A stretch of 64,000 nucleotides of DNA, from positions 76,839 through 140,838 of the forward strand of contig DJVT01000009.1 in NCBI GenBank assembly GCA_002441305.1. Reading direction: 5' to 3'. How positions within the stretch are numbered: position 1 is the stretch's first letter; each line of letters begins with the position of its first letter. Shown in pieces: positions 35,518-58,597 of the stretch. Both the position numbers and the translations under genes were made by a program. The stretch comes from Candidatus Omnitrophica bacterium UBA6249 (GTDB lineage: Bacteria; Omnitrophota; Gorgyraeia; Gygaellales; Profunditerraquicolaceae). The notes beneath the pieces are model-generated. The model worked only from the letters and a program-made list of their open reading frames with translations. It was not told where the DNA came from and did not search any database.

Positions 35518-36609
35518 ATGAGGGTGCTGGTTACGTATGCTTCGGCGGGAGCCGGGCACCGCAGGGTAGCCGAGGCTATATACGCGTATTTGAAAGAGAG
35601 CCGCGGGGAGGTCGATGCCGTATTGTCCGACATCCTGCCTTTTACCGGCAAGCTTTTCCGTTTTTCCTACAGCGCGGGCTATCCTTTTTTAATCAATCAT
35701 GCCCCCTGGCTGTGGGGGTTCTTTTTTTGGCTTACCGGTCCGAGCATTTTCCGCAGGCCTGTCCGCGCATTGGCCAGGATGGCGAATTATTTAGGGTGCA
35801 TGCGGTTTGCCGCTTACCTGCGCAGGGAAAGATTCGATTTTATCATCTCCACACATTTTTTGAACTCCGAGATCGCCGCGGGATTGAAGTCTAAAGGCAG
35901 GATATCTTCCAGGCTGATTACGGTGATTACCGATTTCGGCGTGCATCCTTTTTGGGTTTCCCCGGGGATCGATATTTACGCAGTTGCCTCAGAGGCGACA
36001 AGGGAGAAGCTTAAGGAGATGGGGGTTGCGGATAAACAGGCGATGGTTTCCGGTATCCCCTGCGGCGCGCCTTTTCTGAAAAAAGCAGACCGGGGCAGCC
36101 TGTGTTCGAAGCTTGGTATAGAACAGGGTAAATTTACGGTTTTGCTTATGACCGGTTCTTTCGGTTTCGGCCCGCTTGGGGAGATTGCTGAAGCTGTCAG
36201 CGAGGCAGCGCAGGTTCTGGTTGTCTGCGCAAGGAATAACAGGCTGCTGGAAAGAATGTCGAAGAAAAAGCCGGTGAATATAAAGGCGTTCGGTTTTGTC
36301 GGCAACATAGAGGAGCTTATGGGCGCAAGCGATATTATAATTACCAAGCCAGGAGGATCGAGCATTGCCGAGCTTCTTGCCATGGGGTTGTTTCCTGTTT
36401 TTATATCCGCCATACCCGGGCAGGAGCAGGAAAACGTAAAGGTGCTCTCTTCATGCGGCGTCGGCTATTCATGCGATAATGTCAGGAAGGTAAAGGATTT
36501 TGTTTCCAGGCTCAGGGACAACCCCGCAGAGCTTGAAAGATTGAGAGGTAATGTCTTGAAAATATCCAGGCCCTTTGCCTGCCGGGAGATATGCGATGCT
36601 ATACGCTAA
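35518..36609 (+). CDS. MGDG-synthase-like / processive diacylglycerol glycosyltransferase (GT28)
   Basis: The N-terminal ASAGAGHRRVAEAI and the C-terminal ITKPGGSSIAELLA are typical of the MGDG synthase/UgtP family. Confidence 0.7.
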   Translation: MRVLVTYASAGAGHRRVAEAIYAYLKESRGEVDAVLSDILPFTGKLFRFSYSAGYPFLINHAPWLWGFFFWLTGPSIFRRPVRALARMANYLGCMRFAAYLRRERFDFIISTHFLNSEIAAGLKSKGRISSRLITVITDFGVHPFWVSPGIDIYAVASEATREKLKEMGVADKQAMVSGIPCGAPFLKKADRGSLCSKLGIEQGKFTVLLMTGSFGFGPLGEIAEAVSEAAQVLVVCARNNRLLERMSKKKPVNIKAFGFVGNIEELMGASDIIITKPGGSSIAELLAMGLFPVFISAIPGQEQENVKVLSSCGVGYSCDNVRKVKDFVSRLRDNPAELERLRGNVLKISRPFACREICDAIR

Positions 36610-38455
36610 GGTTGTCCTAGGCCTGCCTGTAGACGGGCCGTTCGATTATCTTGTGCCGGCCGGCCTGGAGGGCAAGATGCGTATCGGCGCCAGGGTATGG
36701 GTGAATTTCCGCAACAAGAAAGAGGTCGCTTATGTCACCGGCCTTACCGCCAGGACGAAGATTAAAAATATAAAAGAGATTTCTTCTTTGATCGACATTA
36801 TCCCCGCCATCGATGATGGGATGATGTCTTTGTGTTCCGGCCTTGCGGAGTATTACTGCTGTTCTTTGGGTGAGGCGATCGAGACCGCGCTTCCTGAGGG
36901 GCTGAGGAAAGGGAAGGAGGTTTTGTCCCCGGTCGCTTCGGCTTCCGGCGGCAGCCTCGCAATGACAAAAACGAATGATCCGGCAGTGGCGGGGGGGATG
37001 CCGGTTTTTGTCCGGGGCCAGGACAGGATGCCTGTTTATTTGAAGTATATAAAGGAAGCTTTGGCCTCCGGGCGTTCGGCGATAATCCTGTTCAGCGATA
37101 TACGCGAGGCCGAAGAGGCCAGGGGGAGGATTGCCAGGGATTCGGGGGCGGAGGTGTTTTCGGTCTTCCGCAAACAGCCGGGGGAGCTTGAGATCTGGCA
37201 GTCGATCAGGGGCTTGTCCAGTTGCGTTGTCGTGGGCACCCGTTCCGGCATCTTTGCCCCGGTAAATAACCTGGGCCTTGTAATAATCGACCGTGAACAG
37301 GACCAGGTTTATAAACAGGAGCAGGCGCCCCATTACCACGCCAGGCAGGCGGCTTTGATGCGCAGCAGGATATGCGGGGCAAAACTTGTTTTAGGCGGGA
37401 CAGTCCCCTCTTTGGAAAGTTTTTTTCTCTTCCGCGAGGGCAAGCTTCAAGTCGAGGACTTGCCTTCGCAAAGCCTTTATCCTGCGGTGCAGGTTATCGA
37501 CAACAGGAGGCTGGCTTACGCGGACAGGAAATCCAAGCCCGTGATTTCGAAGTTCCTGTCGGATGCAATCTTTAAGGTCCTTTCGGATAAAGGGAAGGTG
37601 CTGGTATTTATCGAGCGCAAGGGGTTTGCCACGAGCGCGTTCTGTCATAATTGCGGGGCGCCTTTAAAATGCCCGCGATGCAGTATAAACCTGGTTTTTC
37701 ATTTCGACGAAGACAAGTTAAGGTGCCACCATTGCAATTTCAAGATGGATGTGCCGAAGATCTGCCCGAGCTGCAACTCCGGATATATTAAATATTCCGG
37801 ACTCGGCACGGAAAAACTGGAAAGCGAGCTTGCCAGGATGTTCCCTCAGGCGCGCATAGGGATAATAGGGGAAGGGGATGCCGAACTTGGCAGCGCGGAT
37901 ATTTTTGTTTCTACCAGCGTGGTGCTCAAACACCGTAATTTGAAGTTTGACCTGACGGGGGTAATCTCTATAGATAATTCCCTGAACCGGGTTGATTTCC
38001 GCGCGGCAGAGAAGGCATTTTCCCTGCTCACCGAACTGGCGGGCCGGAGCGCTAGGATGGTCATACAGAGCGCCAACGCCGGGCATTATTGTTTTAGGGC
38101 GCTGGTAAAGAATGACCAGGGGTTATTCCTGCAGGAGGAGCTGCGTCAGCGTAAACAGTTGAATTTTCCCCCGTATAAGCATATGATATTGCTTAAGCTC
38201 AGGTCGGCAAGCCTGAGCAAGGTAAAAGATGCCTCGGCGGGCCTTTTCGAGAAGCTGGGCAGCATTAAAAGCGCGAGCGTAAAATTGCTTTCGCTCAATC
38301 CGTCTCAGCCGGCCAAGTTAAGGGGGAACTTTTATTACCAGATACTGATGCGCGCCTCGCGGGCGGAGAAGGCGGCGCGTTTTTTAAGGCCGTATCTGAA
38401 GGACGGCAGTTTTTCGGGCGTAATCGTGACAGTGGATGTGGATCCGGTGATATGA
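36596..38455 (+). CDS. priA: primosomal protein N' (PriA) with degenerate helicase motifs
   Basis: The N-terminal VLGLPVDGPFDYLVP..G.RVWVNF and the Cys4 x2 zinc region (CHNCGAPLKCPRC...CHHCNF...CPSCNS) are PriA-like. However motif I reads GQDRM and motif II reads DREQ. The ATG at 36596 is preferred over the TTG at 36575. Confidence 0.8.
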   Translation: MLYAKVVLGLPVDGPFDYLVPAGLEGKMRIGARVWVNFRNKKEVAYVTGLTARTKIKNIKEISSLIDIIPAIDDGMMSLCSGLAEYYCCSLGEAIETALPEGLRKGKEVLSPVASASGGSLAMTKTNDPAVAGGMPVFVRGQDRMPVYLKYIKEALASGRSAIILFSDIREAEEARGRIARDSGAEVFSVFRKQPGELEIWQSIRGLSSCVVVGTRSGIFAPVNNLGLVIIDREQDQVYKQEQAPHYHARQAALMRSRICGAKLVLGGTVPSLESFFLFREGKLQVEDLPSQSLYPAVQVIDNRRLAYADRKSKPVISKFLSDAIFKVLSDKGKVLVFIERKGFATSAFCHNCGAPLKCPRCSINLVFHFDEDKLRCHHCNFKMDVPKICPSCNSGYIKYSGLGTEKLESELARMFPQARIGIIGEGDAELGSADIFVSTSVVLKHRNLKFDLTGVISIDNSLNRVDFRAAEKAFSLLTELAGRSARMVIQSANAGHYCFRALVKNDQGLFLQEELRQRKQLNFPPYKHMILLKLRSASLSKVKDASAGLFEKLGSIKSASVKLLSLNPSQPAKLRGNFYYQILMRASRAEKAARFLRPYLKDGSFSGVIVTVDVDPVI

Positions 38456-39423
38456 AGATAATATTTTTTGGAAGCGCACATTTTGCAGTTCCTTCCCTTA
38501 AGGCCTTGATCAAAAGCGGCCATGAGGTATCCTGCGTGGTTACCCAGCCGGATAAGAAAAAAGGCAGGCATATGCATTTATCCGGCACGGACGTAAAGAC
38601 TACCGCGGAGAAAGCGGGCCTTGAGATTTTTCAGCCGGGGGATATCAAAAGTAAGGAGAGCGTGGAATTCCTCAGGGGCTTTAAGGCGGATATTTTTGTT
38701 ATCGTGGCTTACGGCCAAATCCTTTCCCAGGAGGTGCTGGATATACCTAAAATCATGCCGCTTAATATACATGCTTCGCTGCTGCCGCGTTACCGCGGGG
38801 CCGCCCCGATAAATTGGGCGATCATCAATGCGGATAAGAAGACAGGGGTAAGCATCATGTATGTGAGCCTGAAGATGGATTCCGGGCCGGTAATCATGCA
38901 GAAGGAGATCGGCATAGATAAGCAGGATACGGCGGTAAGCCTGGAGGAGAAGCTGCGCCTTTTAGGGGCGGAGCTGCTTATGGATGCGCTCAAGGCGATA
39001 GAGGAAAGGGACTACAGGCTTATCGAGCAGGATGAAGAGAAGGTGATTATTGCCCCTAAGCTCAAGAAAGAGGACGGGTTGATCGACTGGAGCGCGCATG
39101 CTCCGGATATCCATAACCAGGTCAGGGGCGTACTGCCGTGGCCGGGGGCCTTTACCGTTTACCGCGGCAAGATGCTTAAAATTTTTAATACGGAGACAAT
39201 AGCGGCGTTCCCCGGCCATAAGCCTGTCCCGGGAGAGATTGTCAGGGCGGATAAGCATGAGATAGTGGTTGCCTGCGGAAGAGGTTTTTTGAGCATACGG
39301 GAACTGCAGATTGAAGCGGGCAGGCGTATGTGCGCGCATTCTTTTGTCGTAGGCCACAGGCTTAAGGCCGGTGAGGTCTTGGGGAGTTCTCATATTCGTC
39401 ATTCCCGCAATGACACAAAATAG
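38452..39423 (+). CDS. fmt: methionyl-tRNA formyltransferase
   Basis: MKIIFFGSAHFAVPSL and HASLLPRYRGAAPINWAI are characteristic. ATGA overlap with priA. Confidence 0.9.
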   Translation: MKIIFFGSAHFAVPSLKALIKSGHEVSCVVTQPDKKKGRHMHLSGTDVKTTAEKAGLEIFQPGDIKSKESVEFLRGFKADIFVIVAYGQILSQEVLDIPKIMPLNIHASLLPRYRGAAPINWAIINADKKTGVSIMYVSLKMDSGPVIMQKEIGIDKQDTAVSLEEKLRLLGAELLMDALKAIEERDYRLIEQDEEKVIIAPKLKKEDGLIDWSAHAPDIHNQVRGVLPWPGAFTVYRGKMLKIFNTETIAAFPGHKPVPGEIVRADKHEIVVACGRGFLSIRELQIEAGRRMCAHSFVVGHRLKAGEVLGSSHIRHSRNDTK

Positions 39424-39459: not shown

Positions 39460-40482
39460 ATGCCAGAGTTAAGGAAAGATCCGATTATAGGTAGATGGGT
39501 AATTATTGCCACTGAGCGCGCGCGCAGGCCCGACCAGTTTTCCGGCCATAAGGAGCACGACGAACAGGGGGAGTGCCCTTTTTGCGAAGGGAGAGAATCC
39601 AATACGCCCCCTGAGATTTATGCCATTCGCCCGCGTAACCCCGCCCGCAATCAGCCGGGATGGGATTTGCGGGTAGTCCCGAGCAAATTTCCTTTTTTAA
39701 AGATAGAGGGTGACCTTGACCGCCGCGGAAACGGCATCTATGACGTGATGAACGGCCTCGGAGCCCATGAGGTAGTGATCGAGACCAACCAGCATATCGC
39801 CAATATGGCGGATTTGAGCGAGGAGCAGATTACCAGGGTGCTCAATTGTTACTCCGACAGGATAACCGACCTGGAAAAGGATCTCAGGCTTAAATATGTG
39901 CTGGTGTTTAAGAATTACGGTAAAGGCTCCGGAGGGGGAGCGATAAGGCATTCCCGCTCGCAGTTGATCGCCACTCCCGTCAACCCCAAGCGGGTAAAAG
40001 AGGAGCTCGCCGGGGCAAGGCGTTATTATGAATACCATGAGCGTTGTGTTTTCTGCGACTTGATCAAACAGGAGCTTGAGCAGAAGGAGCGCGTGATCGC
40101 CGAGTTCGACGGCTTTGTGGCGGTTGCGCCGTTTGCGGCGAGATTTCCCTTCGAGACCTGGATTTTGCCGAAGAACCACTGCTGCGATTATACTTGTATG
40201 GACCCGGATTCGAGGAGGCATCTTGCCCGGGTGCTCAAGAGCGTGCTTCTTAAGCTGAAGGTGGGGTTGAACGATCCGGATTACAATTACGTTATCCATA
40301 CCGCACCGTTCCGCAGGCAGAAGACCGGCTACTGGAAGACAATCGACCACGATTACCATTGGCATATCGAGATTATGCCGCGCCTGACAAGGGTGGCGGG
40401 TTTTGAATGGGGGACGGGTTTCTATATCTGTCCGCTTCCTCCTGAGGAGACAGCGAAGTTTTTAAGAGAGGTGGAGATTTAA
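39460..40482 (+). CDS. GalT-family (HIT superfamily, galactose-1-P uridylyltransferase/ADP-glucose phosphorylase-like) protein, atypical active site
   Basis: CPFCEG, GAHEVVIE and YHWHIEIMP are conserved, but the HPHxQ motif is replaced by HSRSQ. Confidence 0.75.
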   Translation: MPELRKDPIIGRWVIIATERARRPDQFSGHKEHDEQGECPFCEGRESNTPPEIYAIRPRNPARNQPGWDLRVVPSKFPFLKIEGDLDRRGNGIYDVMNGLGAHEVVIETNQHIANMADLSEEQITRVLNCYSDRITDLEKDLRLKYVLVFKNYGKGSGGGAIRHSRSQLIATPVNPKRVKEELAGARRYYEYHERCVFCDLIKQELEQKERVIAEFDGFVAVAPFAARFPFETWILPKNHCCDYTCMDPDSRRHLARVLKSVLLKLKVGLNDPDYNYVIHTAPFRRQKTGYWKTIDHDYHWHIEIMPRLTRVAGFEWGTGFYICPLPPEETAKFLREVEI

Positions 40483-40483
40483 G

Positions 40484-41485
40484 ATGCCAGAGCTGAGGAG
40501 AGATCCGGTTGTGGGCAGATGGGTGATTGTGGATACAGACCATCCTAACAAGCCGGAGGATTTCGAATACGAGCGTTATGTGCCGGCAGGCGGGCTGTGC
40601 CCGTTTTGTTACGGCAACGAGTTTATGACTCCTCCGGAGATAAGCTGTTTCCGCGATCCTTCCACTGCGCCGAACAGCCCCGGCTGGCAGGTGCGCGTGG
40701 TGGCGAACAAGTTTCCCGCATTGCAGATAGAAGGTGATCTTGACCGCAGGGGCATAGGCATCTACGACATGTCAAACGGCGTGGGCGCACATGAAGTGCT
40801 CATCGAGACCCCTTACCATAATAAGGATATTCCCGAGCTCCTGCCGCATGAGATAGAAAGTTACCTGAGGATGTGCTGTGTGCGCGCCGCAGACCTGAAG
40901 AGGGACAGCCGTTTTAAATACATTATGATCTTCCGTAATTACGGGTCGGCCGCCGGAGCATCGCTGGAGCATCCGCATACCCAGCTTATCGCGCTGCCCA
41001 TGGTCCCGAAGAATGCGCTGGAGGAGATACACGGAGCGCAGAATTACTATAACTACCGGGAGCGCTGTATTTACTGCGACATAATCCGCCAGGAGCTGCA
41101 GGATAAGGTCAGGCTGATTACGGAGAACAAGAGCTTCATTTCTTTTTGCCCGTTTGTCTCAAGGTTCCCGTTCGAGATTATGATTATGCCCAGGCAGCAC
41201 AGCGGGTATTTTTGCCATATGAACGACGGCCAGCTTTCCGACCTGGCGGCGATATTGAGAGAAACGCTGGCGAAATTAAAAAAAGTATTTGAAAATTTGT
41301 CATATAATTATATAATTCATTCTGCGCCTATTAACGGTGATTCTGACGTAGAATATTATCATTGGCATCTTGAAATCATGCCTAAGCTGACGCAAGTAGC
41401 AGGTTTTGAATGGGGGACTGGTTTCTACCTTGATCAAACCTCGCCTGAATTAGCCGCGCAGTATTTAAAAGCCGTAAAAGAATAA
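40484..41485 (+). CDS. galT: GalT-family nucleotidyltransferase (canonical HPHTQ active site)
   Basis: CPFCYG, GAHEVLIE, EHPHTQLIALP and YHWHLEIMP are all present. The start is 1 nt after the stop of its paralogue. Confidence 0.8.
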   Translation: MPELRRDPVVGRWVIVDTDHPNKPEDFEYERYVPAGGLCPFCYGNEFMTPPEISCFRDPSTAPNSPGWQVRVVANKFPALQIEGDLDRRGIGIYDMSNGVGAHEVLIETPYHNKDIPELLPHEIESYLRMCCVRAADLKRDSRFKYIMIFRNYGSAAGASLEHPHTQLIALPMVPKNALEEIHGAQNYYNYRERCIYCDIIRQELQDKVRLITENKSFISFCPFVSRFPFEIMIMPRQHSGYFCHMNDGQLSDLAAILRETLAKLKKVFENLSYNYIIHSAPINGDSDVEYYHWHLEIMPKLTQVAGFEWGTGFYLDQTSPELAAQYLKAVKE

Positions 41486-52370: not shown

Positions 52371-55300
52371 ATGTATTTCAAAAGACTGGAACTTTTGGGT
52401 TTCAAGTCATTTTGCGATAAGACCGTGCTTAATTTCGAGCCGGGGATTACCGCGGTGGTCGGGCCTAACGGATGCGGGAAGTCAAATATTTTTGATTCTA
52501 TCCGCTGGGTACTGGGCGAACAGTCTGCGAAATCCCTGCGCGGCTCGGAGATGCTTGATGTTATCTTCAACGGAGCCGACAATAAGGAGGCTTTGAGTAT
52601 GGCGGAGGTCAGCCTGACTTTCGACAACTCCAGCAGGTTTTTCAACCTGGACCAGCCTGAAGTAATGATTACGCGCAGGCTTTTCAGGAGCGGGGAAAGC
52701 GAATACCTGCTGAATAAGGCGACGGTAAGGCTCAAGGATATTATGGATTTGCTTTTGGGCACGGGCGTAGGGGCGGAGAGTTATTCGATTATCGCCCAGG
52801 GGAAGATCGATTTGGTCCTAAGCAGCCGGCCGGAAGACAGGAGGATGGTTTTCGACGAGGCAAGCGGAATAAGCAAGTATAAGGCTCAGAAAAGGGAGAC
52901 TACCCGCAAGCTGGAAGAGACGGAGCAGAATCTCCTGCGCGTAAACGATATCGTAGCCGAGGTAAAGAGGCAGATAGGCTCGCTTGAACGCCAGGCCAAT
53001 AAGGCGCGCAGGTACAAAGAGGTGTTCGAAGATTTGAAGTTAAAGGAGACCAGCCAGGCTATACTGGATAAAGCGGGCCTCTTAAAGCAGAAGGAAGATA
53101 CTTTGCTGCTGGCCGACGAATTAAGGAAGCAGGAGTCGGCGCTCGTGGAGAAGGTGGGCGAGCTTGAGTCAAGGATAGCTAACAGGCAGTCGGAGCTCAA
53201 GGCGCTGGAGGAGAGCCTGATGTCCAGCCGGAGCCAGATACTTAATTTAGAGAACAGCCTGGTGCGCAATAACGAGCACATCGCCTTCAACCAGCAGCGC
53301 ATTGCCGAGATAGAAGAAAATAAGTCTGTCCTGGAGTCTCAGATAGAGCAGTCGCGGAATAAGCTCATCCAGGATGAGGAGAAGCTGAAGAATGTGCGTC
53401 TTGAGTACGACAACCTCAAGCAGAATATAGACCAGAGGCGTTCTGTCCTTGCGCAGAAAGAAGAGGAGATCGAGAGGTTGAGTTCTGCGATCAAGAAATC
53501 CCTGGAAACTATATCCGATAACAAGAAGCTGATTATCGACCTGGAGACAAGGATATCCTCGACTCATAACGAAGTAAATGATTTCAATTCCAAGCACCAG
53601 GTATTCCTGGCGCGCAAGAAGAGGCTTGAGATAGAGAAGGCCAAGGTGTATGAGGAGAAGGCTATAGCCGAAGATGCCCTGAACAAGGTTACCCAGGAAT
53701 TGGCGAGCACGCGTGAATTGGTGGATAGTTTCAGGCAGAAGATCCTCGGCGTAAAGAGCAACCTTGAGCAGGAGAGCGATAATCTTAACAGCGTGAACCA
53801 GCAGATTACCGCATGCGAGAATGAAAAACTCACTCTGGTTTCGCATAAAGAGTTCCTGGAGAAGCTGAAGAGCAAATATGACAATATCGGAGAATCGCTC
53901 AATGCCGTGATCTACCTGGACAAGACGCCGAAAGAGAGCCTGACCGGGCTGGTAGTCAAGGTGCAGGGGCAGGATGTTTTAAGCGATGAGGATAAGGCCC
54001 GCCTGGGGGGAAATACGCTCAAGATAAGCGGCGAGGCAAAACCCATAGAGCTGGATACCGTGAACATCAGCGAGAAGATAGCCAGGCTTGAAGAGGAGCT
54101 GGGGGAGTTGAGGAGCAGGAAAGTGCTGCGCGAGAGCTGCATATCAGAACTTACCAAGATGTCTTCGAACCTGGAGCAGGAGCTGCGCAGCCATGAGATA
54201 ACCCTGGCGAACAAGGAGTCCAGTTATGAGACTATGTCTGAGCAGTTCAACAAGATAAAGGAAGAAGAGGATATAATCGTGATGGAGCTGGGGGATGTTG
54301 CGCGGGAAATATCCGCAATCGAACAGAACCTGTGCGACGCCCAGGCGAGGCTTTCTGCGCTGAACGAGGAGGAGAGGCAGAGGCAGGATTCAATTGTCCA
54401 GGAAGAGGATAATATTTCTTCCAACAGTAAGGCGCGTGAAGAGGTGCTTGTTTTGCTTACTCAGACAAAGACGGAGATAGAGGCATTGAACAGGCGTTTT
54501 ACGTCCGATGCGGCGACTTTGAAGCTGCTCGATGATACATATGCGCAGGATAAGGCCAATCTCGACAGTGTAGAGAGGCAGATCAGCGAGTCCGGTGAAC
54601 GGCGCAGGATATTCGAGCTTGAAATTGAGGATTGCCGGAATAAGATCTCCCAGGCGGAGTCCGGGATAAAAGAACTTAAGGATTCTCTTTCCGGAGTGGA
54701 GGCCCAGTATAACGAAGTCTCCAGCGGGACCGTGGGCACAGTAAAACAGATAGAGGCCAGCCGCAAAGAATTGGAGCAGGCGAGGAACGGGCTGCATGAG
54801 CTGGAGATGAAGGATAAGGACCTGGACTACCGTTATTCGAGCATCAAAGAGAGAATGTTGTCGGCTTACAAGGTAGATTTGGAATCGCTCGGCGGCCCGG
54901 CAGAGGGGGTCGACCAGGGGGCCCTCTCGATGGAAATCTCCGAGCTGAAGAGAAAACTCGATTCTTACGGTACGGTAAACCTTGTGGCGATAGAGGAGTA
55001 TGACGAGCTTAAGCAAAGATATGATTTTCTCGTGCAGCAGCAGACCGACCTTTTGACGGCCAAGGATTCCCTGCACCAGGCTATACTGAAGATAAACCGC
55101 ACGACCAAGCAGATGTTCGTGGAGACTTTCGAAAAGGTAAAAGTGGAGTTCAAGAATTATTTCCGCCTGCTCTTTAACGGGGGCGACGCGCAGTTATTCC
55201 TTACGGATGAATCCGACCCCCTTGAGTCGGGTATAGAGATTATCTGCCGCCCTCCGGGAAAGAAGCTGCAGAATGTTCTTTTACTTTCCGGCGGGGAGAA

Positions 55301-55604
55301 AAGCATGTCCGCGATCGCCCTGATTTTCGCTATTTTCAAGGTCAAGCCTTCGCCTTTCTGCATACTGGATGAGATCGATGCGGCTTTGGACGAGGCAAAC
55401 GTAGACAGGTTCTCCAGGGCCTTGCAGGAGTTCTCAAAGACTTCGCAGTTTATCGTGATCACTCATAATAAAAAGACTATTGCCAATGCGAATGTGATGT
55501 ACGGGATCACTATGCAGCAGTCGGGTGTTTCGAAGATAGTCTCGGTGAAGCTCTCCCAGAATAAAGAAAAGGAGAACCAGAGGGAGGAGCCGGTTACGGT
55601 TTAA
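52371..55604 (+). CDS. smc: chromosome segregation protein SMC
   Basis: GPNGCGKSNI is the Walker A. Long coiled coils follow, and the C-terminus has LSGGEKSMSAIAL...ILDEIDAALD. Confidence 0.9.
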   Translation: MYFKRLELLGFKSFCDKTVLNFEPGITAVVGPNGCGKSNIFDSIRWVLGEQSAKSLRGSEMLDVIFNGADNKEALSMAEVSLTFDNSSRFFNLDQPEVMITRRLFRSGESEYLLNKATVRLKDIMDLLLGTGVGAESYSIIAQGKIDLVLSSRPEDRRMVFDEASGISKYKAQKRETTRKLEETEQNLLRVNDIVAEVKRQIGSLERQANKARRYKEVFEDLKLKETSQAILDKAGLLKQKEDTLLLADELRKQESALVEKVGELESRIANRQSELKALEESLMSSRSQILNLENSLVRNNEHIAFNQQRIAEIEENKSVLESQIEQSRNKLIQDEEKLKNVRLEYDNLKQNIDQRRSVLAQKEEEIERLSSAIKKSLETISDNKKLIIDLETRISSTHNEVNDFNSKHQVFLARKKRLEIEKAKVYEEKAIAEDALNKVTQELASTRELVDSFRQKILGVKSNLEQESDNLNSVNQQITACENEKLTLVSHKEFLEKLKSKYDNIGESLNAVIYLDKTPKESLTGLVVKVQGQDVLSDEDKARLGGNTLKISGEAKPIELDTVNISEKIARLEEELGELRSRKVLRESCISELTKMSSNLEQELRSHEITLANKESSYETMSEQFNKIKEEEDIIVMELGDVAREISAIEQNLCDAQARLSALNEEERQRQDSIVQEEDNISSNSKAREEVLVLLTQTKTEIEALNRRFTSDAATLKLLDDTYAQDKANLDSVERQISESGERRRIFELEIEDCRNKISQAESGIKELKDSLSGVEAQYNEVSSGTVGTVKQIEASRKELEQARNGLHELEMKDKDLDYRYSSIKERMLSAYKVDLESLGGPAEGVDQGALSMEISELKRKLDSYGTVNLVAIEEYDELKQRYDFLVQQQTDLLTAKDSLHQAILKINRTTKQMFVETFEKVKVEFKNYFRLLFNGGDAQLFLTDESDPLESGIEIICRPPGKKLQNVLLLSGGEKSMSAIALIFAIFKVKPSPFCILDEIDAALDEANVDRFSRALQEFSKTSQFIVITHNKKTIANANVMYGITMQQSGVSKIVSVKLSQNKEKENQREEPVTV

Positions 55605-56770
55605 GAACTGCAGCAGGTGTTGTTTTTACCCTGGTTCTTGGCCTTATACAGGGATTTGTCCGAGGAGGTAATCAGTTCGTCGGGAGTGAGGCCGTTATCG
55701 GGGAAAGTGGCTATTCCCAGGCTCACGGTAAGTTGTTTACCTGGAAAGGTTTCTTCGTTAAAGAAAGGGTATCTTTGGATATCCATCCTCAGCCTTTCGG
55801 CTATCATATAGGCTTCTTTCTGTTCTGTCTGCGGGAGGATAACGGTAAATTCCTCTCCTCCGTAACGGCAGACATAATCCATCTTCCGTGATTGGTTGCG
55901 CAGCAGCCTGGCAAGGTCCCGGAGTATCTTGTCTCCTTCCTGGTGGCCCATAGTATCGTTGTAAATCTTGAAGTTGTCGATATCCAAAGCAATCAGGCTT
56001 AATTTTTCCTTTGCGGCCTTGGCCTTTTCCATTTCCACCTGGAGGAGGTACTGGAAGTATCCGTGGTTCCAGAGGCTCGTAAGATAGTCGGAGTGGGCCC
56101 GTTCAACGGTCAGTTCGAACAGGCGGGAGTTTTCGATAGCCAGGCCTGCCTGGTTAGCAAGCATGGTGAGCATGCGGATATCGTCTTTTGTGATAGGTTC
56201 GTTGGTGATAAAGTTGTCCGCCACGATTATCCCGTTGACGCGGTCCTTGGCTTTAAGCGGGATGAGCAGGAGCTCATTGCCGCCGAATATCTTCAATACC
56301 GGAGAGTTCTTGTATTTCTGCATGGATTGTTTGTCCAGGTGAAGCGGCATCCCTTCCAGCACGGCGAGGGAGAGAGGGTTCTCTTCTTTGTCATACATGG
56401 ATACCTTCAGGTTCTTCACCTGGCGGTTGAAACCGGAATCCAGGACAAAGCTTGAATTCTTGAAGGCGTCGATCAGGTCTTCCAGGTCCATCTTTTCCTG
56501 TTCTATCTTCGTCCAGGCTATATTGGCTTCTTCGCCGTTTTCCGGGCCGATTCCCATCCTGCCTTCGATAATTTTATCCTTTTCGTTGACTAAAAAAAGC
56601 ATGGCGCGGTTGAAACCCAGGCCGGTATGAGCGGTTACGCCGGTAAGAATGATATAGAGGATTTCGTCCAGCTTGAGGGTGGTGCGCATTGCATTGGAGA
56701 TCTCGTAGAGTATGCCCAGCTCGTTTTTGGTGCGTTCAAGTTCGGTTTTAAGCTTGTTCAATTCGTCCAT
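55601..56770 (-). CDS. GAF domain-containing diguanylate cyclase (GGDEF)
   Basis: RYGGEEFTVILP is the GGEEF motif, preceded by a GAF-like region and an N-terminal coiled coil. The start at ATG 56770 (MDELNKL) follows from the promoter geometry. Alternative starts are 56788 (ATG) and 56806 (TTG). Confidence 0.8.
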   Translation of the reverse strand: MDELNKLKTELERTKNELGILYEISNAMRTTLKLDEILYIILTGVTAHTGLGFNRAMLFLVNEKDKIIEGRMGIGPENGEEANIAWTKIEQEKMDLEDLIDAFKNSSFVLDSGFNRQVKNLKVSMYDKEENPLSLAVLEGMPLHLDKQSMQKYKNSPVLKIFGGNELLLIPLKAKDRVNGIIVADNFITNEPITKDDIRMLTMLANQAGLAIENSRLFELTVERAHSDYLTSLWNHGYFQYLLQVEMEKAKAAKEKLSLIALDIDNFKIYNDTMGHQEGDKILRDLARLLRNQSRKMDYVCRYGGEEFTVILPQTEQKEAYMIAERLRMDIQRYPFFNEETFPGKQLTVSLGIATFPDNGLTPDELITSSDKSLYKAKNQGKNNTCCSS

Positions 56771-56778
56771 AATGGTTA

Positions 56779-56806
56779 AGTGTAACATATCTGCGACCAA
56801 TGTCAA
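56779..56806 (-). promoter_or_regulatory. sigma70-type promoter, leaderless geometry (GGDEF gene)
   Basis: On the minus strand: TTGACA (56806-56801), 16-nt spacer, TACACT (56784-56779), then 8 nt to the ATG at 56770. Confidence 0.5.
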
Positions 56807-57378: not shown

Positions 57379-57506
57379 TTTTCCGGGGATGCCATCCTTT
57401 TTGCATTATTTCCAGAAATCACAAATTTCCGCAATCCATGTTAGATGAGCCTCTTTTTTGCGTCAGTTATGGCAGAAAGGAGGGGTTTTGGCCGGCAGGA
57501 ATGTGG

Positions 57507-57535
57507 TTGACACCCAGTCGGTGGCGGGTTATAAT
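57507..57535 (+). promoter_or_regulatory. consensus sigma70 promoter (recA)
   Basis: TTGACA (57507-57512), 17-nt spacer, TATAAT (57530-57535). A leader of about 27 nt carries the GGAGGGA RBS ahead of the ATG at 57569. Confidence 0.75.
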
Positions 57536-57568
57536 AATCACTTAAATTTATACAGCGGAGGGACTAAG

Positions 57569-58597
57569 ATGGCGGTCGATAAAAGAAAAGAAAAAGAAGA
57601 AGTGAGGGATTTATCCGACAGGCATAAGGCGCTGGAGCTGGCTTTGGCGCAGATAGAAAAACAGTTCGGCAAGGGTTCGATTATGAAGCTCGGAGCCCAC
57701 ACCAAGGTTAACGTCGAGACCATATCTACAGGAGCGCTTACCCTGGATACCGCCCTGGGTGTGGGAGGCTTGCCGCGCGGCAGGGTGGTGGAGATATTCG
57801 GCCCTGAGGCATCAGGAAAAACTACTTTGACTTTGACGGCGATAAGGGAGATACAGAAAAAGGGCGGAGTTGCCGCGTTTATAGACGCTGAACATGCCTT
57901 TGACCCGATCTACGCCAAGCTTATCGGGGTAAATCTTGACGATCTCCTGATTTCACAGCCGGATACGGGCGAGCAGGCGCTGGAGATAGCCGAGACTCTG
58001 GTACGTTCCAATGCGGTTGACCTGGTAGTGGTCGATTCGGTAGCGGCGCTTACTCCCCGCGCTGAGATCGAAGGAGATATGGGGGATTCGCATATGGGGC
58101 TGCAGGCGCGCCTTATGTCGCAGGCCCTGCGCAAGTTAACCGGTTCGATCAGCAAATCTCGCACTACGGTAATTTTTATCAACCAGCTGAGGGAAAAAAT
58201 CGGAGTAATGTTCGGCTCCCCGGAGACGACTCCCGGGGGGAGGGCGCTCAAGTTTTATTCATCGGTCAGGCTGGATGTGCGAAGGATCGCTTATTTGAAA
58301 GAGGGGGATAGGATAGTTGGTAACCATGTAAGGGTCAGGGTGGTCAAGAACAAGGTGGCTCCCCCGTTCCGCGAGGCAGAGTTCGATATTATGCATAATG
58401 AAGGGATTGCCAAGACCGGGTCGGTTATCGATGCAGGCGTGAATCTGGGCGTACTTGCCAAATCCGGCACCTGGATTTCCTTTGAAGACAAAAAGCTGGG
58501 GCAGGGCCGGGATGCGGCGATAAAGTTCCTGAAAGAGACCCCCAAGGTGCAGGAAGATATTGAAAAAGAAGTTCGTAAGAAGATCAGCCTCGAATAG
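57569..58597 (+). CDS. recA: recombinase RecA
   Basis: [12 protein letters not shown] is the Walker A, and [22 protein letters not shown] follows. The ATG at 57569 has RBS ggaggga. The track's upstream extension covers the promoter. Confidence 0.95.

Follow-up and report, generated by a model that had tools for sequence, protein, structure and literature searches.

A PriA orthologue of Candidatus Omnitrophota with degenerate ATPase and helicase motifs, a predicted pseudohelicase

The closest known counterparts of the predicted pseudohelicase described here are PriA proteins and variants of Escherichia coli and Deinococcus radiodurans. The E. coli PriA K230R variant (priA300) has no ATPase, helicase, or translocase activity (PMC4504706, PMC5778457), yet primosome assembly and the PriA-PriB restart pathway work with the K230 variants, which are likewise devoid of these three activities (PMC5778457, PMC13594977). 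These variants function together with PriB and DnaT, and the PriA-PriC pathway does not operate with them. PriAs of Deinococcus-Thermus carry a lysine-to-arginine change at the Walker A lysine, and the D. radiodurans protein, in which this change is present, shows no ATPase or unwinding activity in vitro while it binds single-stranded DNA (ssDNA) and forks and interacts with DnaB (PMC4504706). In this study, we describe a PriA orthologue of 619 amino acids (aa), all of whose ATPase/helicase motifs are degenerate, encoded at positions 36596-38455 of the forward strand in a 64,000-nucleotide stretch of contig DJVT01000009.1 from Candidatus Omnitrophica bacterium UBA6249 (the window, whose coordinates are used throughout). 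We document the identity of this degenerate priA gene, the loss of its motifs, its fold, the selection acting on it, its taxonomic spread, and its positional orthology.

The interpretation that we favor, and to which we assign a probability of about three in four, is that the PriA orthologue of this genome has turned into a pseudohelicase, which would have kept the PriA fold and the elements that bind DNA and partner proteins and would have lost ATP binding and hydrolysis, translocation, and unwinding of the nascent lagging strand. We infer the loss of ATPase activity from the E. coli K230R and K230A variants and from the D. radiodurans protein and, by the same analogy, fork binding and a role in helicase loading would have been retained. 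A literature search found no paper linking Omnitrophota with PriA and no PriA pseudohelicase besides that of D. radiodurans. The Omnitrophota protein is predicted from its sequence to be the second natural PriA to have lost its motor, after Deinococcus, in a family that is larger and more thoroughly dismantled.

Identity, fold, and helicase motifs of the encoded PriA

In a Pfam scan, the 619-aa protein matched PriA_3primeBD (PF17764, 1.4e-23), Zn_ribbon_PriA (PF18319, 1.8e-9), and PriA_C (PF18074, 1.3e-10), and no DEAD, ResIII, or Helicase_C domain was detected. It scored 362 bits with TIGR00595 (priA), whose cutoff is 230, and stayed far below the cutoffs of all the full-length equivalog models NF0040xx and NF0114xx (e.g., 414 vs. 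813). The closest solved structures were the Klebsiella pneumoniae PriA 4NL4 (E = 3e-68) and E. coli PriA, with E values of about 1e-65 to 1e-68. An AlphaFold2 model built from 118 relatives reached a pLDDT of 94.5 and a pTM of 0.92, and Foldseek matched it to E. coli PriA 8FAK_H (E = 1e-54, TM-score 0.87), the best non-PriA structure having a TM-score of 0.32. Taken from sequence matches and the model, these findings confirm the predicted product as a PriA comprising the 3' DNA-binding domain, two RecA-like lobes, the Cys4+Cys4 zinc region, and the C-terminal domain. The pose of the model was considered as a possible sign of the locked "CRR-UP" state of the cysteine-rich region (CRR), as the TM-score was 0.87 to the fork- and PriB-bound 8FAK_H vs. 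0.75 to apo structures. This idea was dropped because the control model of a canonical Omnitrophota PriA (P0158) shows an equal preference (0.88 for 8FAK vs. 0.75 for apo structures); the 8FAK-like pose is therefore not specific to the pseudohelicase.

The motif register was obtained from a HMMER alignment to 4NL4 and from MAFFT alignments with the E. coli PriA of NC_000913, and all the features given below lie on the forward strand. In the motif I (Walker A) remnant at 37007-37039, E. coli GVTGSGKTEVY is replaced by FVRG and QDRMPVY separated by a 3-aa deletion, with the changes G229D, K230 to R144, and T231M. The residue at K230 is arginine in 99% of the close family, as it is in 263 of the 320 proteins lacking Walker A among the 501 PriA-like proteins that we collected. 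Motif Ia at 37085-37117 reads ILFSDIREAEE (E. coli VMVPEIGLTPQ), and the DEEH region of motif II (Walker B) at 37283-37303 reads IIDREQD (E. coli VIDEEHD), with E321 replaced by arginine and H323 by glutamine. The catalytic E321 position, arginine in the window protein, is glutamine in 92% of close relatives, and the Walker B aspartate and E322 are kept in the degenerate family. The consensus of the 120 closest homologues (59-72% identity, about 600-635 aa) is F-v-Q-G-q-D-R-m-P-v-Y in motif I and I-I-D-Q-E-x-D in motif II. Motif III at 37391-37408 reads LGGTVP (E. coli LGSATP). A 13-aa deletion precedes the motif V remnant IFVSTSVVLKHRN at 37901-37939, in which E. coli GTQMLAKGHHF aligns with STSVVLKHRN. 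Motif VI at 38033-38056 reads ELAGRSAR (E. coli QVAGRAGR); the two arginine-finger positions (R584 and R587) have changed to leucine and lysine in the wider family, R584 being replaced by leucine in 245 of the 320 proteins.

The Q-motif helix is deleted, with both E202 and Q203 aligning to gaps. In place of this helix and the E. coli winged-helix domain there is a fast-evolving linker of low confidence (residues 106-135; 36911-37000; pLDDT 56-60), the only segment in which the ratio of nonsynonymous to synonymous substitution rates (dN/dS) is elevated (0.3-1.4). We considered whether the missing winged-helix domain belongs to the degeneration and rejected this, since canonical Omnitrophota PriAs also lack it. 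The features of an active superfamily 2 helicase that were looked for (Q motif, GK[TS] P-loop, DExH, and arginine finger or GRxGR) are all absent. Moreover, canonical Omnitrophota PriAs have 170 invariant positions at which E. coli carries the same residue; of these, 84 are kept and 86 are lost in the degenerate family, and the lost ones map onto the helicase motifs. The alignments thus confirm that the window PriA, as judged by sequence, has no intact motif Q, I, Ia, II, III, V, or VI. A preliminary description of this DNA had proposed homology to PriA along the whole length, including the N-terminal DNA-binding region, both Cys4 motifs, and the C-terminal domain, which agrees with the Pfam and 4NL4 matches. 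Its register for motifs I, Ia, II, and III was exact, and the neighboring blocks that it regarded as conserved, VVGTRSGIF (motif Ib) and YKQEQAPHYHAR (the aromatic-rich loop), are real. Beyond that description are the degeneration of motifs V and VI, the deletion of the Q-motif helix and of the 13 aa before motif V, and the absence of a winged-helix domain.

Elements for DNA and partner binding and the proposed function

The 3' DNA-binding domain (PF17764; residues 1-105; 36596-36910) keeps the 3'-end pocket formed by F16, D17, Y18, and K60 (K61 in E. coli), whose role in PriA has been described (PMC5778457) and whose residues are conserved in 119-120 of the 120 relatives. At D17 (36644-36646), aspartate is found in 119 of the 120 degenerate forms, giving an E. 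coli-like F-D-Y, and canonical Omnitrophota PriAs mostly have F-H-Y, with histidine in 89 of 118. Motif Ib (GTRSGIF; 37235-37255) retains the equivalents of E. coli G302, R304, S305, and F308 and is invariant or nearly so in alignments A1 (36 sequences) and A3. The retained aromatic-rich loop YKQEQAPHYHAR (37310-37345) has invariant equivalents of K328, Q329, and Y335, residues of the loop as it has been defined (PMC5175346), with an R334-to-histidine change fixed in the degenerate family. Motif IV (FIERKGF; 37607-37627) keeps the arginine of the ssDNA pore (R427 in E. coli, R341 here) and has lysine at R428. In E. coli, R427 and R428 bind ssDNA in the CRR-UP pore, and R427 is needed for the CRR-UP state and PriB docking (PMC13594977). 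The CRR (PF18319; 37634-37792) contains two Cys4 zinc sites (C350, C353, C359, C362, C377, C380, C390, and C393) and H369, the equivalent of E. coli H455. All eight cysteines are invariant in 118 diverse relatives, H455 is kept in 120 of 120, and E492 is kept as well; in E. coli, H455 and E492 stabilize the rotated CRR-UP state, which encircles lagging-strand ssDNA and exposes the PriB docking site (PMC13594977). As with the 3'-end pocket, these retained residues and those of Walker B are usually present in 119-120 of the 120 relatives. The C-terminal domain (PF18074; 38156-38452) ends in a conserved DVDP.

It seems from the sequence comparison that the docking site for the SSB C-terminal tail has been lost along with the motor. 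The pocket residues Trp82 and Arg697 of K. pneumoniae PriA (PMC5531588) correspond to E. coli W83 and R698 and to G82 (36836-36841) and A590 (38363-38365) in the window. The W83 position is tryptophan in 116 of 118 canonical Omnitrophota PriAs and arginine, glutamine, lysine, or glycine in the degenerate family, and the R698 position is arginine or lysine in 117 of 118 of the former and valine, alanine, or proline in the latter. As SSB-tail binding stimulates unwinding by PriA, the disappearance of this pocket together with the motor would represent a coherent loss of one functional module.

We propose that the whole protein would act as an ATP-independent factor for the recognition of forks and D-loops and as a platform for helicase loading. 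The 3' DNA-binding domain would read the leading-strand 3' end, and the two inert RecA-like lobes would hold the fork junction and the lagging-strand template through motif Ib, the aromatic-rich loop, and the motif IV arginine, and the zinc-bound CRR may close over the ssDNA template and provide a surface on which the replicative helicase, its loader, or both could dock. Only forks with lagging-strand ssDNA already exposed could then be restarted, unless another helicase or nuclease clears that strand. Since RecA is encoded 19 kb downstream, D-loop and recombination substrates should be available.

The likeness to the Deinococcus-Thermus proteins (PMC4504706) lies in a PriA orthologue with a Walker A lysine-to-arginine change and a degenerate Walker B, conserved lineage-wide; binding of ssDNA and forks and helicase loading without ATPase or unwinding may be expected for the Omnitrophota protein by analogy. 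By comparison with the published description of D. radiodurans PriA, the degeneration documented in Omnitrophota is wider: it extends to motifs Q, Ia, III, V, and VI, involves several deletions, and includes the SSB-tail pocket. The E. coli K230R (priA300) and K230A/D variants are altered at the same lysine, K230R to the same arginine; however, these are single-site laboratory mutants of a helicase otherwise intact, whereas the Omnitrophota motor appears to have been wholly dismantled by natural evolution. Canonical PriA (TIGR00595; 4NL4, 6DCR, 8FAK) shares with the window protein the fold, the fmt neighborhood, and the order of domains, with the 3' DNA-binding domain followed by lobe 1, lobe 2 with the inserted Cys4+Cys4 CRR, and the C-terminal domain; in contrast, the Omnitrophota form lacks the ATPase motifs, the Q-motif helix, and the W83/R698 pocket residues. 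The winged-helix domain of E. coli-type PriA is absent here as it is in the canonical Omnitrophota PriAs.

Spread, orthology, and alternative explanations

The degenerate form is widespread. All 120 closest homologues share the motif changes. When 1.84 billion cluster representatives were searched, the 150 nearest clusters defined at 50% identity (30-49% identity to the query) included about 100 in which GKT, DExH, and GRxGR are likewise missing. When GTDB species-representative genomes were scanned with the 12-sequence alignment A2, at least 224 of them contained a relative. Among the 80 of these 224 that were listed, the labels are Candidatus Omnitrophota/Omnitrophica save for one "bacterium" and several automatically labeled "uncultured Planctomycetales", and every named match in the profile search was from Omnitrophota. 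Loci from metagenome-assembled genomes (MAGs) carrying the "uncultured Planctomycetales" label contain the degenerate priA in the same neighborhood at 47-69% identity (L011, L020, L022, L031, L032, L034, L050, L053, L054, L056-L058, and L068); these automatic labels should probably read Omnitrophota.

The gene is under strong purifying selection, the dead helicase lobes included. Nei-Gojobori dN/dS for seven close pairs was 0.09-0.15 overall, 0.03-0.19 in lobe 1, and 0.04-0.11 in lobe 2. The mean pairwise identity of the degenerate family was 0.72, vs. 0.69 for canonical Omnitrophota PriAs of similar spread, and the corresponding identities were 0.66 vs. 0.74 in lobe 1 and 0.75 vs. 0.79 in lobe 2. 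One relative of about 725 aa (L077, 3693-5867) has an insertion. Split tblastn matches near the linker and the start of lobe 1 were seen at L031, L032, L034, and L061; strong divergence of the linker, a frameshift, or an assembly error could account for them.

The open reading frame (ORF) of 619 codons is intact. Its ATG at 36596 is preceded by the Shine-Dalgarno-like GGGAGA and overlaps by 14 nucleotides the end of the upstream MGDG-synthase-like glycosyltransferase gene (35518-36609, forward strand; stop codon TAA at 36607-36609), which serves as a syntenic anchor. Its TGA at 38453-38455 overlaps the ATG at 38452 of fmt (methionyl-tRNA formyltransferase; 38452-39423, forward strand) in an ATGA junction. 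An alternative in-frame TTG start exists at 36575; public gene calls take the ATG. An identical 619-aa protein (P0001, 100%) is encoded by six independent contigs, the longest of 473 kb, in public assemblies (JGI, Logan, ENA, and NCBI). In the window and its relatives the order of genes is DegT - GT2 - HAD - MGDG_synth - degenerate priA - fmt - galT - galT - gap, and among the degenerate-form loci MGDG_synth directly precedes the degenerate priA in 72 of 74, and fmt lies downstream of it in 70 of 76.

Canonical PriAs (about 666-675 aa, with GxGKT, DEEH, GRAGR, and Pfam DEAD/Helicase_C) are common in Omnitrophota-labeled MAGs. The order HAD - epimerase - MGDG_synth - UDG - priA - fmt - ... - galT-like is found in CP070780.1 (complete, 1.43 Mb) and in two other assemblies, so that canonical PriA lies in the MGDG_synth-(UDG)-priA-fmt slot at three of four loci; the fourth (L092) begins at priA, and only its fmt/galT side is visible. 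Partly decayed forms are present as well. P0274 (L087) is arranged as UDG-priA-(x)-fmt, with one gene between priA and fmt, and P0222 (L088) as UDG-priA at a contig end. P0181 and P0274 have GPRESGKERIY, IIDGEEE, and an intact GRAGR, so that P0181 has lost Walker A and Walker B and kept motif VI; P0222 has GKPGSGKMTVC and IIYEEHD; and P0226 has kept GKT and lost Walker B and motif VI. Among the intermediate forms, only P0215 has Omnitrophota as its source label. In genomes whose PriA is canonical or intermediate, a uracil-DNA glycosylase (UDG) gene separates MGDG_synth from priA (L082, 9313-10017; L087, 5247-5936; L088, 5330-5998; L090, 4342-4992; L091, 2097-2786); this gene is absent from the same position in the window and in genomes with the fully degenerate PriA.

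In neighbor-joining (NJ) bootstraps, the core degenerate clade never included canonical sequences (100/100). A sister link between this clade and canonical Omnitrophota PriA appeared in the point NJ tree with a bootstrap of 13/100 and was not relied on; because of this weak link, the orthology rests on synteny and taxonomy. The occupation of the same slot by canonical orthologues in other Omnitrophota argues for a loss inside the phylum, and the simplest reading of these observations would be the in-place decay of a single orthologue within a large Omnitrophota subclade. An origin independent of Deinococcus-Thermus is therefore supported, if indirectly, by the canonical and intermediate orthologues at the same Omnitrophota locus. 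The preliminary description had suggested such an independent case on the Deinococcus precedent; the precedent itself is real (PMC4504706), and the suggestion gains the indirect support just given. That description had also asked whether relatives share the substitutions, which they do, and had noted a coupling to fmt in a normal context, borne out by the ATGA junction and the conserved operon-like arrangement; its opinion that the gene is no obvious pseudogene is upheld by the dN/dS values and the intact ORF.

The loss of so many catalytic residues at once might be taken to indicate a decaying pseudogene or an artefact of a single assembly. This explanation is already refuted by the identical protein on six independent contigs, the presence of full-length orthologues in at least 224 species genomes, and a dN/dS of about 0.1, to which are added the intact ORF with its Shine-Dalgarno-like sequence and ATG, the stop/start overlaps with both neighbors, and the confident AlphaFold2 model. 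The strong constraint on the helicase lobes, together with the 99% conservation of R144 at the lysine position and the proposal of a second, weaker nucleotide site in E. coli PriA (PMC5778457), would be compatible with a still active ATPase/helicase that uses a noncanonical nucleotide site in which Arg144 replaces the P-loop lysine. However, K230R alone abolishes the ATPase of E. coli PriA (PMC4504706, PMC5778457), and here the P-loop is also three residues shorter and without its glycine and threonine, no Q-motif helix is left, arginine or glutamine stands in for the Walker B glutamate, and motifs III, V, and VI are gone. Moreover, only one of the 320 proteins without Walker A keeps both motif VI arginines plus Walker B. 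We regard residual motor activity as highly improbable.

It is also conceivable that the degenerate protein is a neofunctionalized paralogue, for example, an ATPase-dead regulator or competitor that binds forks, with a canonical PriA encoded elsewhere in the genome. The abundance of canonical PriAs in Omnitrophota-labeled MAGs and the new residues fixed in the former ATP site would fit this explanation. A tblastn search with canonical P0158 found no second priA in the 64-kb window or in the more than 80 fetched loci of up to 22 kb, and canonical and degenerate forms sit in the same syntenic slot in their respective genomes, as expected of orthologues. The canonical-form assemblies CP070780, JAQVUX, and JABMQJ are not among the 80 listed degenerate-form assemblies, which is weak evidence in the same direction. 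Altogether, a paralogue is clearly unlikely, although less so than a working motor. Some points nevertheless weigh against the interpretation that we favor. A second canonical priA could lie beyond the window and the flanks of about 20 kb. Without W83 and R698, one known route of PriA recruitment is probably missing. In addition to the 99% conserved arginine at K230, R192, H246, F451, and D452 are fixed around the former ATP site, and the pocket could have acquired a new ligand or role instead of being empty.

Genomic surroundings and significance for replication restart

Directly after fmt there are two tandem paralogous GalT-like genes (39460-41485; GalP_UDP_transf / DUF4921 / DUF4931; 340 and 333 aa), a pair that is kept downstream of priA-fmt in most Omnitrophota loci and is followed by gap-pgk-tpi-secG. 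SMC (1077 aa; 52371-55604) and RecA (57458-58597) are encoded 14-19 kb downstream of the degenerate priA. The TTG start of the listed RecA ORF was probably called too far upstream, since about 56 residues precede the RecA domain. GC skew is strongly positive in all 2-kb bins (0.09-0.28), and nearly all genes are on the forward strand, the single clear minus-strand gene being that of a GAF-GGDEF protein (55601-56806); the entire window therefore seems to belong to one leading-strand replichore whose genes are co-directional. Positions 1-24600 have a much lower G+C content than the remainder of the window (32-39% vs. 47-54%) and encode a cluster of the surface-glycan/O-antigen type, with methyltransferases, a GT9 heptosyltransferase, two Wzy_C proteins, WecG, an initiating sugar transferase, two DegT aminotransferases, epimerases, and a split transketolase. 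This region looks like a variable or horizontally acquired glycan island.

That a helicase-dead PriA works is already known from E. coli and Deinococcus, and the present finding is useful rather than startling. Its scale is that of a deep Omnitrophota subclade: the form is present in at least 224 species genomes, and its proteins fall into about 100 clusters at 50% identity. As a tentative suggestion that goes beyond the pseudohelicase itself, and that we consider rather doubtful, the PriA motor may have been lost repeatedly and stepwise in Omnitrophota, with basal lineages losing different motifs first. The dismantled form would then be a constitutively "locked" fork clamp, its ATP pocket re-fixed by R144, Q/R233, H246, and F451/D452, and it would bring the replicative helicase onto DNA directly, with no need for ATP, recruitment by the SSB tail, PriB, or DnaT. 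If this were true, Omnitrophota would provide a natural separation-of-function series that defines the minimal, ancestral restart activity of PriA. Apart from that suggestion, the fact that canonical, intermediate, and degenerate orthologues share one genomic slot in related genomes makes them a natural separation-of-function series, in which the features for ATP-independent fork recognition and loading may be set apart from those for unwinding, and the predicted pseudohelicase bears on how replication restart may proceed in bacteria without PriB and DnaT.

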